Source: Escherichia coli (GTDB lineage Bacteria > Pseudomonadota > Gammaproteobacteria > Enterobacterales > Enterobacteriaceae). Taken from it: 64,000 nt of DNA. The notes under the pieces were generated by a model. That model was not told where the DNA came from and searched no databases. It saw only the letters and a list, made by a program, of their open reading frames with translations. The stretch lies in assembly GCF_044324785.1 (NCBI RefSeq), contig NZ_CP172127.1; one strand, written 5' to 3'. Shown piece after piece: positions 34,019-41,969 of the stretch. Made by a program: the position numbers and the translations under genes. How positions within the stretch are numbered: the first letter of the stretch is position 1; each line of letters opens with the position of its first letter.

Positions 34019-34043
34019 ACAGGGCAGAAATTTCCTGCCCTGT
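34019..34043 (+). terminator. Hairpin immediately 3' of fruA (weak terminator, no strong T-run)
   Basis: 9-bp stem acagggcag/ctgccctgt with 7-nt loop. Confidence 0.45.
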
Positions 34044-34159
34044 ATCATTTGAAGATCGCAAGGTGACTGACTAGTTCTTGAGGGTAACTATATGAATTTT
34101 ATGTTTTTATCTTTAAGTTGAAACCAGAAATCTCATCAAACGTTAATGTTATTTCCTCA

Positions 34160-34187
34160 AGGGCAGATTATTTTCTGCCCTTTTTTA
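34160..34187 (+). terminator. Rho-independent terminator in the fruA-psuK spacer
   Basis: Stem agggcaga/tctgccct followed by a 6-T run; stem sequence nearly identical to the hairpin at 34019. Confidence 0.7.
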
Positions 34188-34326
34188 TTGTTCCTGTTCT
34201 GTGCATCCCGTCACAAATTCCCCGTTTTTATAATTCAGGCATTTAATCGCGTTTTGTGAGCCTGCTCAAATCTGCCCATTTTGCCTCTCTGGCGGTAATT
34301 TACTTTACGTAAAACATGCATACTAT

Positions 34327-34360
34327 GAGCACATGTTTAAATATGAACACATGTTTAAAC
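34327..34360. promoter_or_regulatory. Tandem direct repeats (candidate operator) upstream of psuK
   Basis: gagcacatgtttaaat and gaacacatgtttaaac, 18-bp period, each with palindromic cores (acatgt, tttaaa). Confidence 0.3.
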
Positions 34361-34426: not shown

Positions 34427-35368
34427 ATGCGCGAAAAGGATTATGTCGTAATTATAGGTTCGGCGAATATTGATGTCGCCGGATATTCACATGAATCATT
34501 AAATTATGCGGATTCAAATCCAGGTAAAATAAAATTTACGCCTGGTGGAGTCGGGCGCAATATTGCACAAAACCTGGCGTTGCTGGGGAACAAAGCCTGG
34601 CTACTGAGCGCCGTAGGCAGTGATTTTTATGGTCAATCGCTGCTAACGCAAACCAATCAATCTGGCGTTTATGTCGATAAATGCCTGATAGTGCCGGGAG
34701 AAAATACGTCAAGCTATTTATCATTACTCGATAATACCGGTGAAATGCTGGTTGCTATAAATGACATGAATATTAGCAACGCTATTACAGCTGAATATCT
34801 CGCACAGCACCGTGAATTTATTCAGAGGGCAAAGGTCATTGTCGCAGACTGTAATATCAGTGAAGAGGCACTGGCATGGATTCTGGATAATGCCGCCAAC
34901 GTACCTGTATTTGTCGATCCTGTTTCCGCGTGGAAATGTGTCAAAGTGCGCGACCGTCTAAATCAAATCCACACTCTCAAGCCAAACCGCCTTGAAGCGG
35001 AAACCCTGAGTGGGATTGCGCTGTCAGGGCGTGAAGATGTGGCAAAAGTTGCTGCCTGGTTCCATCAACATGGCCTGAACCGACTGGTATTGAGCATGGG
35101 CGGCGACGGCGTTTATTACAGCGATATCAGCGGTGAAAGTGGCTGGTCTGCGCCGATCAAAACCAATGTTATTAATGTTACCGGAGCGGGCGATGCCATG
35201 ATGGCGGGGCTTGCTTCGTGTTGGGTAGACGGAATGCCGTTTGCCGAATCTGTTCGTTTCGCACAGGGATGTTCGTCAATGGCGCTCTCCTGTGAATACA
35301 CCAATAACCCCGATTTATCGATTGCCAACGTTATATCGTTAGTGGAGAACGCAGAATGTCTGAATTAA
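34427..35368 (+). CDS. psuK: Pseudouridine kinase (PfkB family)
   Basis: 313 aa; PfkB motifs (GGVGRN; C-terminal GAGD). Confidence 0.9.
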   Translation: MREKDYVVIIGSANIDVAGYSHESLNYADSNPGKIKFTPGGVGRNIAQNLALLGNKAWLLSAVGSDFYGQSLLTQTNQSGVYVDKCLIVPGENTSSYLSLLDNTGEMLVAINDMNISNAITAEYLAQHREFIQRAKVIVADCNISEEALAWILDNAANVPVFVDPVSAWKCVKVRDRLNQIHTLKPNRLEAETLSGIALSGREDVAKVAAWFHQHGLNRLVLSMGGDGVYYSDISGESGWSAPIKTNVINVTGAGDAMMAGLASCWVDGMPFAESVRFAQGCSSMALSCEYTNNPDLSIANVISLVENAECLN

Positions 35369-36294
35369 AAATTTCCCCTGAATTATTACAAATTTCCCCA
35401 GAAGTGCAGGACGCTTTAAAAAACAAAAAACCGATCGTGGCGCTGGAATCGACCATTATTTCTCACGGGATGCCGTTCCCACAAAATGCCCAGACCGCAA
35501 TTGAAGTTGAAGAAACTATTCGTAAACAGGGCGCGGTACCTGCCACTATCGCCATTATTGGCGGCGTGATGAAAGTGGGTTTAAGCAAAGAAGAAATTGA
35601 ATTGCTGGGTCGTGAAGGGCATAACGTGACCAAAGTTAGTCGTCGCGATTTACCTTTTGTTGTTGCCGCAGGGAAAAATGGCGCAACCACCGTTGCTTCA
35701 ACGATGATTATTGCGGCGCTTGCCGGAATTAGAGTATTTGCCACCGGGGGAATTGGTGGTGTGCATCGCGGGGCGGAACATACCTTCGATATTTCTGCCG
35801 ATTTGCAAGAGCTGGCAAATACTAATGTCACCGTTGTTTGTGCCGGGGCGAAATCTATTCTCGATTTAGGATTAACCACTGAGTATTTAGAAACTTTCGG
35901 TGTACCGCTAATTGGCTATCAGACCAAAGCGCTGCCTGCGTTTTTCTGCCGTACCAGCCCGTTTGACGTCAGCATTCGTCTCGACAGCGCCAGTGAAATT
36001 GCCCGTGCAATGGCGGTGAAATGGCAAAGCGGGCTGAACGGTGGCCTCGTGGTAGCGAACCCGATCCCGGAACAGTTTGCGATGCCGGAGGAATCTATCA
36101 ATGCAGCCATAGATCAAGCCGTCGCCGAAGCCGAAGAGCAGGGCGTTATTGGTAAAGAAAGCACACCGTTCCTGCTGGCTCGTGTTGCTGAACTGACTGG
36201 CGGTGACAGCCTGAAATCCAACATCCAGCTGGTGTTCAACAACGCCATTCTGGCGAGCGAAATTGCCAAAGAATATCAGCGTCTCGCGGGTTAA
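35356..36294 (+). CDS. psuG: Pseudouridine-5'-phosphate glycosidase
   Basis: 312 aa; 13-nt overlap with psuK. Confidence 0.9.
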   Translation: MSELKISPELLQISPEVQDALKNKKPIVALESTIISHGMPFPQNAQTAIEVEETIRKQGAVPATIAIIGGVMKVGLSKEEIELLGREGHNVTKVSRRDLPFVVAAGKNGATTVASTMIIAALAGIRVFATGGIGGVHRGAEHTFDISADLQELANTNVTVVCAGAKSILDLGLTTEYLETFGVPLIGYQTKALPAFFCRTSPFDVSIRLDSASEIARAMAVKWQSGLNGGLVVANPIPEQFAMPEESINAAIDQAVAEAEEQGVIGKESTPFLLARVAELTGGDSLKSNIQLVFNNAILASEIAKEYQRLAG

Positions 36295-36321
36295 TTTCTG
36301 ACGGGCAGAAAGCCGTCGCCC
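36294..36321 (+). repeat. Conserved 28-nt leader element, copy 1 (upstream of psuT)
   Basis: atttctgacgggcagaaagccgtcgccc; near-identical copy at 39522..39549. Confidence 0.6.
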
Positions 36322-36387
36322 GTACTCATCAAGCATACCAAAACCTGGCGCTGACGCCGGGTTTACTGGCATGAAGGGAAAATCATT

Positions 36388-37638
36388 ATGGATATAATGA
36401 GAAGTGTTGTGGGGATGGTGGTGTTACTGGCAATAGCATTTCTGTTGTCAGTGAATAAAAAGAGCATCAGTTTGCGCACGGTTGGAGCCGCACTGCTGCT
36501 GCAAATTGCCATTGGTGGCATCATGCTCTATTTTCCGCCGGGAAAATGGGCAGTAGAACAGGCGGCATTAGGCGTTCATAAAGTGATGTCTTACAGTGAT
36601 GCCGGTAGCGCCTTCATTTTTGGTTCGCTGGTCGGGCCGAAAATGGATGTCCTCTTTGACGGTGCGGGTTTTATCTTTGCCTTTCGCGTACTCCCGGCGA
36701 TTATCTTCGTCACTGCGCTCATCAGCCTGCTGTACTACATTGGCGTGATGGGGCTGCTAATCCGCATTCTTGGCAGTATTTTTCAGAAAGCCCTCAACAT
36801 CAGCAAAATCGAATCTTTTGTTGCGGTTACTACTATTTTCCTCGGGCAAAATGAGATCCCGGCGATCGTAAAACCGTTTATCGATCGCATGAATCGCAAC
36901 GAGCTATTTACGGCAATTTGTAGCGGGATGGCGTCCATTGCCGGTTCGATGATGATTGGTTATGCCGGAATGGGCGTACCAATTGACTACCTGTTAGCGG
37001 CATCGCTGATGGCGATCCCTGGTGGTATTTTGTTTGCACGTATTCTTAGCCCAGCCACCGAGCCTTCGCAGGTGACATTTGAAAATCTGTCGTTCAGCGA
37101 AACGCCGCCAAAAAGCTTTATCGAAGCAGCGGCGAGCGGTGCGATGACCGGGTTGAAAATCGCCGCTGGTGTGGCGACGGTGGTAATGGCGTTTGTCGCA
37201 ATTATTGCGCTGATCAACGGTATTATCGGCGGAATTGGCGGCTGGTTTGGTTTTGCCAATGCCTCTCTGGAAAGTATTTTTGGCTATGTGCTGGCACCGC
37301 TGGCGTGGATCATGGGTGTGGACTGGAGTGATGCCAACCTGGCGGGTAGCCTGATTGGGCAGAAACTGGCGATTAACGAATTCGTCGCTTACCTGAGTTT
37401 CTCCCCATACCTGCAAACGGGCGGCACGCTGGAAGTGAAAACCATTGCGATTATCTCCTTTGCGCTTTGTGGTTTTGCTAACTTTGGTTCTATCGGTGTT
37501 GTCGTTGGCGCATTTTCGGCTATTTCGCCAAAACGCGCACCGGAAATCGCCCAGCTTGGTTTACGGGCGCTGGCAGCTGCCACGCTTTCCAACCTGATGA
37601 GCGCGACTATTGCCGGGTTCTTTATTGGTTTAGCTTGA
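36388..37638 (+). CDS. psuT: NupC-family (CNT) nucleoside transporter
   Basis: 416-aa polytopic membrane protein; highly similar along its length to the ORF at 39575..40825. Confidence 0.9.
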   Translation: MDIMRSVVGMVVLLAIAFLLSVNKKSISLRTVGAALLLQIAIGGIMLYFPPGKWAVEQAALGVHKVMSYSDAGSAFIFGSLVGPKMDVLFDGAGFIFAFRVLPAIIFVTALISLLYYIGVMGLLIRILGSIFQKALNISKIESFVAVTTIFLGQNEIPAIVKPFIDRMNRNELFTAICSGMASIAGSMMIGYAGMGVPIDYLLAASLMAIPGGILFARILSPATEPSQVTFENLSFSETPPKSFIEAAASGAMTGLKIAAGVATVVMAFVAIIALINGIIGGIGGWFGFANASLESIFGYVLAPLAWIMGVDWSDANLAGSLIGQKLAINEFVAYLSFSPYLQTGGTLEVKTIAIISFALCGFANFGSIGVVVGAFSAISPKRAPEIAQLGLRALAAATLSNLMSATIAGFFIGLA

Positions 37639-37644
37639 GTTTCA

Positions 37645-37684
37645 TTGCCGGAGGTACGCGCTTATTAAATGTTGCATCCGGCAA
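37645..37684. repeat. REP-like inverted repeat downstream of psuT
   Basis: 8-bp arms ttgccgga/tccggcaa with GC-rich interior resembling a REP half-unit. Confidence 0.4.
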
Positions 37685-37705
37685 TCGCGCTATTGCAAAT
37701 AATTT

Positions 37706-38365
37706 TTACTGCATCATCCCGGAGAATTTATTCTCCGGGTCCATCTCCAGTGCCAGTCCTGACAACTGCTTTCTGTTTTTAATTAGATACCCTTTCTTGC
37801 TTTTAATTAATAAACCGTCGTGAATGAATTGCGCGAGAACATATAAAAGATGTCGATAAGAAACGCCTAAATACTCTGCCGCTTGCGTATGCTTTTCGTG
37901 ATAAAGATCACCTTCCTGCGAGAGTAATATAAAAGCTGCCAGGCGATTCACTAATGGAAATGATTGATTCTGAGTTAAAGAAACAATATTACGATAATTT
38001 TTATGACTTAAGGTGACGCAGAGTTTTCGTAAAAATAGCGTGTCGTTTAATAACAGCGGGCGGTAATGTTTCATAGGGAGCGCAAGGCACCAACACTCTT
38101 CAATAGCCTGCACCGCACGCGGTTCATGGTCTTTGTCGATTAACTCAATCTCGCCAATAAAACAGGGGGCGGCAAAGAAATCGATCAGCGACACGCGACC
38201 ATTAGCTAGCGTGGCGTAAAGCCTGGCGCGGCCTCGCGTCAGGTAAAACAGCCAGGACGGCTGTTGCCCTTCCTGCACAATGTAGTCACGCGCTAAAAAA
38301 TGAAACAGCCGCGTATCGGCTGAAACATCCGTTGAAAAGCAATCCTTAAACGCGGATTCACTCAT
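37706..38365 (-). CDS. yeiL: CRP/FNR-family transcriptional regulator YeiL
   Basis: 219 aa from internal Met (MSESAF); N-terminal nucleotide-binding-like domain, C-terminal HTH; Cys residues. Confidence 0.8.
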
Positions 38366-38533
38366 CAATTGCTGCTTAAGATCATTATTGTGGATTTCTT
38401 TCACGATGTTTATCCGCTATGAGATTTCTCATATTTAGCATACGTACGCTGTTGTTAAGATTCAATCATCGGCCCGGTCGAATTTTCTTTGCTGTAGAAA
38501 AAATAACGCAACTGGAAACAGAGGAAATAAACA

Positions 38534-39475
38534 ATGGAAAAGAGAAAAATTATTCTGGATTGTGATCCGGGTCATGATGATGCTATTGCAATGATGATGG
38601 CAGCGAAACATCCGGCGATTGATTTATTAGGTATCACCATTGTAGCGGGTAATCAGACGCTTGATAAAACATTAATTAATGGCCTGAATGTTTGCCAGAA
38701 ACTGGAGATTAATGTTCCGGTTTATGCGGGGATGCCACAGCCCATTATGCGGCAACAAATTGTTGCCGATAATATTCACGGTGAAACCGGACTGGATGGC
38801 CCGGTATTCGAGCCGCTGACCCGCCAGGCAGAAAGCACTCATGCGGTGAAATATATCATCGATACCCTGATGGCAAGCGATGGCGATATCACTCTGGTGC
38901 CGGTTGGTCCGCTTTCAAATATCGCGGTGGCAATGCGTATGCAACCCGCGATCCTGCCCAAAATCCGTGAAATTGTGCTAATGGGCGGCGCTTACGGTAC
39001 AGGCAACTTCACCCCATCTGCCGAGTTCAACATCTTTGCCGACCCGGAAGCCGCACGCGTGGTGTTCACCTCCGGCGTTCCGTTGGTGATGATGGGCCTC
39101 GATCTCACCAACCAGACTGTTTGCACCCCGGACGTGATTGCCCGGATGGAAAGGGTAGGCGGCCCCGCCGGAGAGCTGTTCAGCGACATCATGAATTTCA
39201 CTCTAAAAACGCAGTTCGAAAACTACGGCCTGGCTGGCGGCCCGGTGCATGACGCCACCTGCATCGGTTATCTGATTAACCCTGATGGCATTAAAACCCA
39301 GGAGATGTACGTCGAAGTGGACGTTAACAGCGGCCCTTGCTACGGGCGTACGGTCTGCGACGAGCTGGGCGTTCTTGGCAAGCCCGCCAATACCAAAGTC
39401 GGCATCACTATTGATACCGACTGGTTCTGGGGATTAGTCGAAGAGTGCGTGCGCGGCTACATCAAAACCCATTAA
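38534..39475 (+). CDS. rihB: Pyrimidine-specific ribonucleoside hydrolase RihB
   Basis: 313 aa; N-terminal DxDxxxDD nucleoside-hydrolase motif (DCDPGHDD). Confidence 0.9.
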
Positions 39476-39521
39476 GTGTTGATAACAAGCCGGATCAGTG
39501 TCGCAAGATGCAGGCCCGGCT

Positions 39522-39549
39522 ATTTCTGATGGGCAGAAAGCCGTCGCCC
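39522..39549 (+). repeat. Conserved 28-nt leader element, copy 2 (upstream of nupX)
   Basis: atttctgatgggcagaaagccgtcgccc; one mismatch to copy 1. Confidence 0.6.
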
Positions 39550-39574
39550 AAAATGACATGAAGAGATAATAACT

Positions 39575-40825
39575 ATGGATGTCATGAGAAGTGTTCTGGG
39601 AATGGTGGTATTGCTGGCAATTGCGTTTTTGCTGTCAGTAAACAAGAAGAAGATCAGCCTGCGTACCGTTGGCGCGGCGTTAGTGTTACAGGTCGTGATT
39701 GGCGGCATTATGCTTTGGTTACCGCCAGGGCGTTGGGTCGCAGAAAAAGTCGCTTTTGGCGTGCATAAAGTGATGGCGTACAGCGACGCGGGTAGCGCAT
39801 TTATCTTTGGTTCTCTGGTCGGACCGAAAATGGACACCTTATTTGATGGCGCAGGATTTATCTTTGGCTTCAGGGTATTACCGGCAATTATCTTCGTTAC
39901 AGCACTGGTGAGTATTCTCTACTACATCGGTGTGATGGGGATCTTAATTCGAATTCTCGGCGGTATATTCCAGAAAGCATTGAATATCAGCAAGATCGAG
40001 TCATTCGTCGCGGTTACTACCATTTTCCTCGGGCAAAACGAAATTCCGGCAATCGTCAAACCCTTTATCGATCGTCTGAATCGCAATGAATTATTTACAG
40101 CGATTTGTAGTGGCATGGCCTCGATTGCTGGTTCGACAATGATTGGTTATGCCGCTCTGGGCGTGCCTGTGGAATATCTGCTGGCGGCATCGTTAATGGC
40201 GATCCCCGGCGGGATCTTGTTTGCCCGCCTGTTAAGCCCGGCTACCGAATCTTCGCAGGTTTCCTTTAATAACCTCTCTTTCACCGAAACACCGCCAAAA
40301 AGCATTATTGAAGCCGCCGCTACAGGGGCAATGACCGGGCTGAAAATCGCAGCAGGTGTGGCGACAGTGGTGATGGCATTTGTTGCCATCATTGCGTTGA
40401 TTAACGGAATTATCGGCGGCGTTGGCGGCTGGTTTGGTTTTGAACATGCCTCGCTGGAGTCAATTTTAGGTTATCTGTTGGCTCCACTGGCGTGGGTGAT
40501 GGGGGTTGACTGGAGTGATGCGAATCTTGCCGGGAGTTTGATTGGACAGAAACTGGCGATTAATGAATTTGTCGCTTACCTCAATTTCTCACCTTATCTG
40601 CAAACAGCTGGCACTCTGGATGCTAAAACCGTGGCGATTATTTCTTTCGCGTTGTGCGGTTTCGCTAACTTTGGTTCTATCGGGGTGGTGGTTGGCGCAT
40701 TTTCTGCGGTTGCGCCACACCGTGCACCGGAAATCGCCCAGCTTGGTTTACGCGCGCTGGCGGCGGCGACACTTTCTAACCTGATGAGTGCCACCATTGC
40801 AGGATTCTTTATTGGCTTAGCGTAG
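39575..40825 (+). CDS. nupX: NupC-family (CNT) nucleoside transporter
   Basis: 416 aa, paralog of psuT with long identical blocks. Confidence 0.9.
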   Translation: MDVMRSVLGMVVLLAIAFLLSVNKKKISLRTVGAALVLQVVIGGIMLWLPPGRWVAEKVAFGVHKVMAYSDAGSAFIFGSLVGPKMDTLFDGAGFIFGFRVLPAIIFVTALVSILYYIGVMGILIRILGGIFQKALNISKIESFVAVTTIFLGQNEIPAIVKPFIDRLNRNELFTAICSGMASIAGSTMIGYAALGVPVEYLLAASLMAIPGGILFARLLSPATESSQVSFNNLSFTETPPKSIIEAAATGAMTGLKIAAGVATVVMAFVAIIALINGIIGGVGGWFGFEHASLESILGYLLAPLAWVMGVDWSDANLAGSLIGQKLAINEFVAYLNFSPYLQTAGTLDAKTVAIISFALCGFANFGSIGVVVGAFSAVAPHRAPEIAQLGLRALAAATLSNLMSATIAGFFIGLA

Positions 40826-40880: not shown

Positions 40881-41969
40881 TTACACCATCGGCACTAATG
40901 AAAGCGCGTTTTCGGCAGACAGGGTAGGGTTGTTTAAGCTGCCGCTGGCGCGTGAAATTGCCGCGCAGGCCATCGCAAAACGGGCGCTGTCACGGAAATT
41001 GTTTCCCTCCAGAAAGCTATATACCAGGCCCGCCATAAAACCATCGTCAGCACCAAAACTGTCTACTGTCGTATGCGCTGGCGCTGTCAGCAAAAATTGT
41101 TCTCCATCCTTTTCGCTGCAATAAACTGACTCATCGGGCAAATAAACAAACAGTTGCTGAACACCTTGCTGATGCAACGTATTCACTGCGGCATTACGGT
41201 CAGCATCGCTGGTGATCGCCTGTCCCCATAAAATTTCCAGCTCCGGTAAAGTGGGTTTCAGGGTGTGAATATGCGCCAGCCAGTGTTTGATTTTGCCCGC
41301 TTTGAATTCTGAAACGGTATCGACAAACACCGGGATTTCATCAGCGAGGGTAAAGACCCACTCCAGCGCCTCGGCTGTCAGGTTGCAATCAGCAAGTACC
41401 ACGCCCGCATGACGAAGTAAATCGCGCGACCCGTTCAGTAGTTGCGGTGTCAACTGATCCAGCAGATGGGTATCGTTAATCGCCAGCACGGTTTGATCGT
41501 CTCGATTGGCAATTGCCAGATACGTCGATGTGCTTTGACCATGTAAACGAACGCAGCCGGAGACATTCACGCCGGCGCGGCGCGTTTCTTCCAGGAGCAT
41601 TTCGCCATAAAAGTCATCGCCAATCACTGAAAGCAAATGGACGTCGCGGCCTAACAGCGCCAAATTGTGGGCGATATTGCGCCCCACGCCGCCCGCCGAG
41701 CAATGAATTGTACCGGGATGAGAAGCCGCTTGCGGGTAACGGATATCCGCCATCCCGCGAATATCCATATTGATTGTCCCCACCACTACGCAGTATTCCT
41801 GCTCGGTGAGAATGTAACCTTTGCCTTTAATTCGACCTTTGCGCATTAAATCCATAATATGCGCCGCAACGCGCGAACGGCTGATTTGCAGCATATCAGC
41901 AATTTCGTTCTGCTGAATCAGCGGGTTACGCCGTAAAATTGCAAGGATCTCCTTCTCCCGGTTGTTCAT
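40881..41969 (-). CDS. yeiI: HTH-domain fused to PfkB-family carbohydrate/nucleoside kinase (YeiI)
   Basis: 362 aa; N-terminal ~55-aa HTH, remainder clearly homologous to PsuK (shared GGVGRNIA-NLALLG block). Confidence 0.85.
   Translation of the reverse strand: MNNREKEILAILRRNPLIQQNEIADMLQISRSRVAAHIMDLMRKGRIKGKGYILTEQEYCVVVGTINMDIRGMADIRYPQAASHPGTIHCSAGGVGRNIAHNLALLGRDVHLLSVIGDDFYGEMLLEETRRAGVNVSGCVRLHGQSTSTYLAIANRDDQTVLAINDTHLLDQLTPQLLNGSRDLLRHAGVVLADCNLTAEALEWVFTLADEIPVFVDTVSEFKAGKIKHWLAHIHTLKPTLPELEILWGQAITSDADRNAAVNTLHQQGVQQLFVYLPDESVYCSEKDGEQFLLTAPAHTTVDSFGADDGFMAGLVYSFLEGNNFRDSARFAMACAAISRASGSLNNPTLSAENALSLVPMV

Follow-up and report, generated by a model that had tools for sequence, protein, structure and literature searches.

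Why are two neighbouring transporter genes of Escherichia coli preceded by nearly the same piece of non-coding DNA? The question is raised by a stretch of 64,000 nucleotides from one E. coli genome (contig NZ_CP172127.1; the whole stretch is called the window below), in which a 28-nt sequence occurs twice, each time between an enzyme gene (psuG or rihB) and one of two paralogous transporter genes (psuT or nupX). The comparison described here indicates that the unit under selection is smaller than the 28-mer: it is a hairpin, which we call H1, and it is probably a hitherto undescribed RNA element controlling the amount of transporter that is made. H1 is not in Rfam, and the RefSeq annotation of K-12 has no feature in either the psuG–psuT or the rihB–nupX intergenic region.

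Two copies in one locus

The genes and the two copies of the 28-mer are as follows.

35356..36294, + strand: psuG, pseudouridine-5′-phosphate glycosidase, the gene 5′ of copy 1
36294..36321, + strand: 28-mer copy 1, ATTTCTGACGGGCAGAAAGCCGTCGCCC, in the psuG–psuT intergenic region
36370..36378, + strand: CATGAAGGG, the psuT Shine-Dalgarno context (AAGGG)
36388..37638, + strand: psuT, a CNT-family transporter
38534..39475, + strand: rihB, pyrimidine ribonucleoside hydrolase, the gene 5′ of copy 2
39522..39549, + strand: 28-mer copy 2, ATTTCTGATGGGCAGAAAGCCGTCGCCC, in the rihB–nupX intergenic region
39557..39565, + strand: CATGAAGAG, the nupX Shine-Dalgarno context
39575..40825, + strand: nupX, a CNT-family transporter 88.5% identical to PsuT

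The original prediction held that the copies differ by one mismatch, that a related ribosome-binding context follows each of them, and that neither is a classic terminator. All of this is correct. The sole difference is C in copy 1 (…GAC…) against T in copy 2 (…GAT…); CATGAAGGG or CATGAAGAG follows, and then ATG (36388 for psuT, 39575 for nupX), and there is no T-run after either copy. No third match at three or fewer mismatches was found in the window, and there was none in 100 shuffles. The first base of copy 1 is also the final base of the psuG stop codon (36292-36294), and 66 nt separate the end of this copy from psuT; copy 2 begins 46 nt past the rihB stop (39473-39475), with 25 nt between its end and nupX. 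When the psuT and nupX units are aligned with each other, the homology starts exactly at the 5′ end of the element, and the psuT leader has 41 extra nt, comprising a C/A-rich linker and a second hairpin, after the element and ahead of the ribosome-binding site.

It had been asked of the 28-mer whether it might be a dispersed repeat of the repetitive extragenic palindromic (REP) type. Sensitive BLAST of a 32-nt region against 5,426 complete E. coli genomes placed it at a median of 2 and a maximum of 3 sites per genome; a REP or BIME (bacterial interspersed mosaic element) type of repeat would occupy tens to hundreds of unrelated sites, and here the loci were always the same two. It should be noted that 27 identities in 28 are, by themselves, only moderately unusual, as the psuT and nupX coding sequences contain two regions of 28-nt windows with at most one mismatch. 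The significance of the element comes from its conservation across genera, rather than from the identity of the two copies.

Retention in enteric genera

Related loci were gathered without using the element itself, by a protein-based scan of species-representative genomes and, in a second gathering, by a scan of metagenomes with the first 33 nt of the coding sequence, written with degenerate positions. L-numbers denote the loci, or lineages, so collected. A shared core, Y-GGGC-N-G-NNN-GC-N-GU-N-GCCC-R, is present in all 55 distinct upstream regions of psuT/nupX type, in 36 element variants from at least 12 lineages, and always 25-68 nt before the ATG. The expected conservation in orthologous regions is therefore found, and it extends to E. 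albertii, three Citrobacter species, Superficieibacter and several further enterobacterial lineages. Among 14 lineage representatives, 11 of the 19 core columns are invariant, compared with three of 35 four-fold synonymous sites of the adjacent coding sequence, the third-position pairwise identity being 0.56; a simple binomial calculation puts this contrast at about 1e-7, a figure that ignores shared ancestry.

The linkage of the element to the transporter gene is equally strict. The collected sequence, 1.44 Mb, contains 155 copies, and every one of them stands 25-68 nt 5′ of a start codon of psuT/nupX type. A covariance model of the hairpin gives 37.3 bits (E 1e-7) for the psuT copy in the window and 35.0 bits for the nupX copy, the next match scoring 11.7. 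Near the transporter start of 74 more distant CNT loci (from Serratia, Hafnia, Vibrio, Burkholderia and others) the model found no match, from which it follows that, in the loci compared, the element is restricted to the PsuT/NupX clade of Enterobacteriaceae. Its distance from the upstream stop codon is about 6 nt when linked to psuG, 46 nt at E. coli rihB and about 250 nt in L126; as judged from these spacings, H1 travels with the transporter gene. Taken together, the comparisons demonstrate purifying selection on the element and its exclusive linkage to this clade of transporters.

In L126 (1090-1265) a repeat (…CACCCCAGACACTTACTTGAGTAAGCTCCTGGGG…) is inserted between rihB and H1, and not between H1 and the transporter gene. 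We take it by eye, from its likeness to the ERIC core, to be ERIC-like (enterobacterial repetitive intergenic consensus).

The fold that is kept

The conserved unit is a hairpin of 21-23 nt with the stem (R)YGGGC/GCCCR(Y) and an 11-nt loop, and not the whole 28-mer. In the window its two copies are:

36301..36323, + strand: H1 before psuT, stem ACGGGC (36301-06) / GCCCGT (36318-23), 11-nt loop AGAAAGCCGTC (36307-17)
39530..39550, + strand: H1 before nupX, stem TGGGC (39530-34) / GCCCA (39546-50), loop AGAAAGCCGTC

The original prediction had favoured another hairpin, GACGG/CCGTC. The complementarity exists in E. coli, but it is not the conserved fold: only 71% of cells pair, two of the five pairs are broken in most sequences, and the helix breaks in Citrobacter and most other lineages. 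For the H1 stem, 92% of cells pair and four pairs are invariant or nearly so. The two pairs that do vary, in an alignment of 33 sequences, are 12-32 (CG in 22, UA in seven, UG in two, other in two) and 11-33 (GC in 11, AU in six, GU in four, other in 12). Neither the observed paired fraction nor the covariation score was equalled by any shuffle, and RNAalifold returns exactly this helix, both for the element alone and within the full leader. When isolated, H1 has a predicted stability of −7 to −14.6 kcal/mol.

The single C/T difference between the E. coli copies can now be understood as one half of a compensated closing pair, which is C-G before psuT and U-A before nupX. Three separate backgrounds have U-A (Escherichia nupX, L189 and L137), in each case with C-G in the closest relatives, and U-G intermediates segregate in the psuT leaders of E. 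coli and E. albertii. On this comparison the flanking pair has changed from C-G to U-A at least three times, and there is base-pair covariation at the foot of the stem. Within the loop, columns G18, G22, C23, G25 and U26 (alignment numbering) are invariant or nearly so; a G18-U26 wobble is possible in all 33 sequences, but a 19-25 pair in only 15 of them.

Pairing between the loop and its surroundings was also considered. The 5′ flank UUUCU of E. coli is complementary to AGAAA in the loop, and several lineages have loop-flank matches of their own. An H-type pseudoknot with the upstream flank (S1 UUUCU/AGAAA, S2 YGGGC/GCCCR) was nevertheless rejected: in a permutation test, in which the flank of each lineage was paired with the loops of other lineages, the comparison of own with swapped combinations gave p = 0.08, and shuffled flanks scored as well as the lineage's own. 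A TTTCTG/CAGAAA helix in fixed register is paired in merely 52%, and a loop-downstream pseudoknot of preQ1-I type gave p = 0.80; both were discarded.

Identity between the paralogous leaders

The two E. coli copies are more alike than the conserved core requires. Beyond the core they share the flank ATTTCTGA and all of the freely varying loop positions (17, 19-21, 24 and 27). The copies of L126 and L127, which are paralogues from one contig, differ at those flank and loop positions, and rihB-linked leaders of other genera lack ATTTCTGA; the 5′ flank and the variable loop bases are shared only within Escherichia and partly in Citrobacter. PsuT and NupX are 88.5% identical as proteins; their genes are 78.9% identical as DNA and 43% identical at four-fold synonymous sites. 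Since neutral sites are only 43-53% identical, we infer that the extra identity of flank and loop in Escherichia probably reflects local homogenisation (micro gene conversion), and not function. On this reading the 28-nt island is a selected core of 21 nt plus a lineage-specific halo. Elsewhere in the two genes there is an exact run of 29 nt (psuT 37537-37565, nupX 40724-40752, positions 1150-1178 of the coding sequence), which may be another tract of micro gene conversion.

Proposed function of H1 and competing explanations

It had been proposed that the 28-mer has a shared cis-regulatory or RNA-structural function. A selectively conserved non-coding feature tied to both NupC-family (CNT) genes is indeed present; the fold and the extent originally assigned to it were wrong. 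The account we prefer, tentatively and with a probability of roughly 0.45, is that H1 is a new cis-acting hairpin in the RNA of the transporter leader, confined to this clade and read by its sequence by a putative trans-acting factor. H1 would lie on the sense strand, in the untranslated leader between psuG or rihB and the transporter gene within a polycistronic mRNA, and would set the level of transporter message or protein relative to the upstream enzymes, the route being message processing or stability, or translation. The putative factor could be an RNA-binding protein, a ribonuclease or a small RNA. The invariance of four stem pairs and five loop bases suggests a factor that reads sequence, and not just a structural plug. 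Reading as RNA is favoured by four points: pairs have switched in a coordinated way more than once, the conserved bases of the loop are asymmetric, the distance to the ATG is free to vary, and a promoter is lacking. Action as RNA, binding of a factor and the direction of any shift in expression are all what we infer from the alignments.

Several observations weigh against this account. The four core pairs never vary and so provide no evidence from covariation; just two peripheral pairs covary, and one of these is unpaired in 12 of 33 sequences. When the full leader of each lineage is folded, the H1 stem is predicted with a probability that averages 0.44 and takes values between 0.00 and 1.00. 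Departures of G-U type and of A-C type are about equally frequent, so that the transcribed strand is not identified by the substitutions. Finally, rihB is reported to be cryptic in K-12, which would make a function of the nupX copy there doubtful.

One competitor would be an intercistronic stem-loop that acts purely by structure, as an exonuclease barrier or a processing landmark that gives enzyme and transporter mRNA different stabilities, no specific factor being involved. A stable stem-loop does stand between co-oriented cistrons, neither a promoter nor a terminator is close to it, in E. coli H1 comes after an AU-rich stretch, and Hafnia has an unrelated long hairpin at the same psuG–psuT position. 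Such a barrier should, however, tolerate compensatory change and a free loop, yet at least 12 lineages, with synonymous sites close to saturation, all have the same four stem pairs and the same G, GC and GU in the loop, which makes the explanation unlikely. We think it less likely again that H1 is a site in double-stranded DNA, an interrupted palindrome (GGGC-N11-GCCC) bound by a transcription factor as a roadblock or as the operator of an internal promoter. An inverted repeat with fixed spacing and invariant arms would fit this, as would the DNA-binding proteins encoded beside both cassettes, YeiL (CRP/FNR type) and YeiI (HTH_24-PfkB). There are, however, no promoter-like hexamers nearby; the distance from H1 to the ATG is only 25 nt for E. 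coli nupX and ranges from 25 to 68 nt; the conserved loop bases are asymmetric; and coordinated switches from C-G to U-A fit base pairing, whereas independent half-sites would not be expected to change together. No copy occurs at the promoter regions of psuK, rihB, yeiL or yeiI. Moreover, H1 is present in two cassettes with different neighbouring regulators, so that neither YeiI nor YeiL can explain it in both.

The position of H1 in the leaders of nucleoside transporter genes also brings to mind a very small riboswitch, formed by H1 alone or with the C/A-rich linker (and possibly the second hairpin, H2, of the psuT leader), that couples synthesis of PsuT or NupX to pseudouridine or a pyrimidine nucleoside. 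A 5-bp stem, an 11-nt loop with invariant bases and an A/C-rich tail are the dimensions of the preQ1-I aptamer, and H2 and the start-codon hairpin of the psuT-type leader could serve as an expression platform. Against this, loop-flank pairing is unsupported both upstream (p = 0.08) and downstream (p = 0.80), H1 is retained in leaders that lack linker and H2 (that of E. coli nupX, and others linked to rihB), Rfam gives no match, and a bare hairpin leaves little space for a ligand pocket; we consider the idea improbable. Hardly any weight can be given to the notion that the 28-nt identity is a functionless by-product of gene duplication or gene conversion between the E. coli copies. It would agree with the start of the unit homology exactly at the 5′ end of the element, with the sharing of elsewhere-variable positions described above that differ in L126 and L127, and with similar islands of identity in the coding sequences, including the 29-nt run, but it accounts only for the extra identity specific to Escherichia. 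For the core it is contradicted by invariance across genera with neutral sites at 43-56% identity, in every lineage sampled without use of the element. A sequence-read RNA hairpin remains our preferred description of H1, at the probability given above.

Other element types considered

Several known kinds of element were compared with H1 and set aside. A Rho-independent terminator would share the stem, but the loop has 11 nt, the next bases are GTACTCAT or AAAATGAC, and the terminator scan did not report the site. No Rfam family reached its gathering threshold; the only overlap was isrJ, at 18.9 bits against a threshold of 37 (E 9.4), and a search with the leaders of seven other loci gave no match. 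A transcription-factor operator is suggested by the inverted repeat, but a scan found no promoter-like site near either copy, no internal promoter or sigma-54 site was found by scan or by eye, and the ATG follows at no constant distance (25-68 nt). The window contains no further copy, the regions upstream of psuK, rihB/yeiL and yeiI included.

Translation of the element was also considered. The open frame of the psuT leader has no start codon, and the small open reading frames before nupX are not conserved. In-frame stops occur in three lineages (TGA in L160, TAA in L126 and L189). The variable columns partly follow one codon phase, which would read Ala-Val-Ala on the + strand or R-A-T-A-x-C-P on the − strand, with an enrichment (five of nine columns) that is not significant. 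Coding constraint on either strand and a leader peptide were rejected because of the missing start codon, the stops in three lineages and the non-significant phase. The ATG within CATGAAG is not the start of an upstream open reading frame either, being ATC or AGG in other lineages and lying in the Shine-Dalgarno region.

The RfaH ops/JUMPStart element has the consensus GGCGGTAGnnTG. By eye, the common form of the H1 sequence, AGCGGTCGCCCG, matches this at 8 of 12 positions, and the E. coli form, which has GCCGTC, at fewer; the ops core GCGGTAGC is found in L110 only, and one of the matching positions varies freely, so this candidate was rejected. A ribonucleic antiterminator (RAT) of BglG/SacY type was rejected as well: H1 ends 17 nt before H2 (36323 against 36341), and H2 is missing before nupX and in L012, L110 and L189. 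Pairing of the 3′ arm of H1 with the 5′ arm of H2, as in an attenuator, would amount by eye to only 4 bp (CGCC/GGCG). A search of the literature on psuT, nupX, yeiM, yeiJ, psuK, psuG, yeiL and rihB returned work on the enzymes and transport assays, and nothing on the leader or on regulation.

Structure downstream of and around H1

The remainder of the leaders contains the following features.

36324..36340, + strand: C/A-rich single-stranded linker ACTCATCAAGCATACCA, with the consensus GATATCAGACATACCAAAA in other lineages; deleted in E. coli nupX
36341..36364, + strand: hairpin H2 of the psuT leader, AAACCTGGCG-CTGA-CGCCGGGTTT, terminator-like with just 3-4 U
36383..36400, + strand: predicted start-codon hairpin TCATTAT-GGAT-ATAATGA, enclosing the psuT AUG
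39553..39585, + strand: predicted nupX hairpin ATGACAT (39553-59) / ATGTCAT (39579-85), enclosing the Shine-Dalgarno sequence and the AUG

H2 is 91.5% paired and shows no covariation; the sequences of its arms are conserved and its loop is free. It is missing before E. coli nupX, in L012, L110 and L189, and in several rihB-linked leaders, and it could serve as a weak terminator or mark a site of processing. The TCATTAT arm of the psuT start-codon hairpin is non-coding and is kept in most lineages. This conservation suggests that translation is deliberately restrained.

In Hafnia, a transporter 73% identical follows psuG after a spacer of 132 nt. In this spacer is a long hairpin, CCTGAAAGG…CCTTTCAGG, unrelated to H1 but in the same place, a hint that a hairpin of some kind is of use there. 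Hairpins with these arms conserved and the middle variable are found in the psuG–psuT spacers of L007-L010 (Serratia, Hafnia and ‘Klebsiella sp. BIGb0407’), about 60-130 nt before the transporter ATG (for example at 2925-2972 in L008); they have no Rfam match.

Other palindromic sequences lie close by. Between the rihB stop and copy 2, and abutting the latter (39488-39521), is a hairpin AGCCGG…CCGGCT, a degenerate REP-like sequence (GCCGGATCAG…) that is not an annotated REP in K-12. Downstream of fruA are two hairpins with GGGCAGA… arms, at 34019-34043 (ACAGGGCAG…CTGCCCTGT) and at 34158-34183 (AAGGGCAGA…TCTGCCCTT, then a T-run). They share a 7-9-mer, GGGCAGA(AA), with H1, and score only 8.7-11.7 bits with the covariance model; the likeness is probably a coincidence.

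The psu and rihB cassettes

The gene order in the window is fruBKA-psuK-psuG-psuT-(yeiL)-rihB-nupX-(yeiI)-nfo, yeiL and yeiI being on the reverse strand. One further gene should be specified:

40881-41969, − strand: yeiI, an N-terminal winged-helix HTH_24 domain fused to a PfkB kinase

Two cassettes can be recognised. One is psuK-psuG-H1-psuT, followed by the convergent yeiI; the other is yeiL (CRP/FNR type), divergent from rihB-H1-nupX, and has other genomic surroundings in Superficieibacter and L189. The psu cassette of Citrobacter has no yeiL adjoining, and the rihB-nupX cassette of Superficieibacter has no yeiI adjoining. In Citrobacter and in genomes of about 6 Mb (CP082360.1, CP089403.1 and CP067093.1), the loci compared being L004 and L202-L206, psuK-psuG-psuT is directly followed by yeiI and nfo; the yeiL-rihB-nupX cassette sits elsewhere in Superficieibacter (beside cobW-like and cstA genes) and in L189 (beside a DeoR-type regulator gene). 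By this comparison of gene orders, it appears that in Escherichia the cassette was inserted between psuT and yeiI.

YeiI is a candidate nucleoside-sensing regulator. An HTH domain is missing from E. coli PsuK and present in that of Hafnia (L008 815-1933). Upstream of psuK (34312-34359), CACATGTTTAAA is directly repeated (34330-34341 and 34348-34359), and AAACATG at 34312-34318 is its inverted partner; the arrangement would be a plausible operator for a regulator of the psu operon. A psuT-like gene on a metagenome contig (L119) has an in-frame stop at codon 25 (…SVNK*RIS…), which makes it either a pseudogene or an assembly error.

Implications

The literature searched holds almost nothing on the control of psuKGT (pseudouridine catabolism) and of rihB-nupX in E. 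coli. H1 has been kept nearly unchanged before two paralogous transporter genes since before the enteric genera diverged, and it offers a mutable handle both on how one operon can make its transporter and its enzymes in uncoupled amounts and on finding its reader. There is practical relevance too, because psuT, psuK and psuG are current engineering targets for making pseudouridine. If H1 were only a barrier to decay, the result would be an ordinary one.

Relation to described RNA elements

H1 resembles several described elements in part. With REP/BIME and ERIC sequences it shares a GC-rich, palindromic and intergenic character in an enterobacterial genome, but it has just two copies per genome, at the same two loci. 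With Rho-independent terminators it has a GC-rich stem in common, and it differs from them by its 11-nt loop and the lack of a U-tract. The preQ1-I aptamer is a small hairpin-type H pseudoknot; H1 is like it in having a 5-bp stem, an 11-12-nt loop, an A/C-rich 3′ tail and a place in the leader of a gene related to nucleobases or nucleosides, but no conserved loop-tail pairing was found, and sequence similarity and an Rfam match are absent.

Intercistronic stem-loops are known to cause differential expression within operons, examples being the REP hairpin between malE and malF and the stem-loops of the pap and puf operons. H1 is similarly a stable hairpin between genes for soluble enzymes and membrane proteins, on the same strand and with no promoter or terminator of its own. 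Those elements act by structure and their sequence is not conserved, whereas H1 has invariant stem and loop bases; H1 also follows the downstream gene and not the upstream one. A further group comprises regulatory RNA hairpins that are recognised by proteins, such as lambda boxB with N, the RAT site of the BglG family and the binding loop of PyrR. The sequence of H1 is unlike those of boxB, RAT and the PyrR loop, and E. coli is not known to have a PyrR; the RAT site overlaps its terminator, whereas H1 does not overlap H2, which is dispensable in that it is missing before nupX. What H1 does share with this group is its architecture, that of a short leader hairpin with conserved loop and stem bases, standing, in the psuT-type leader, 5′ of a terminator-like hairpin.

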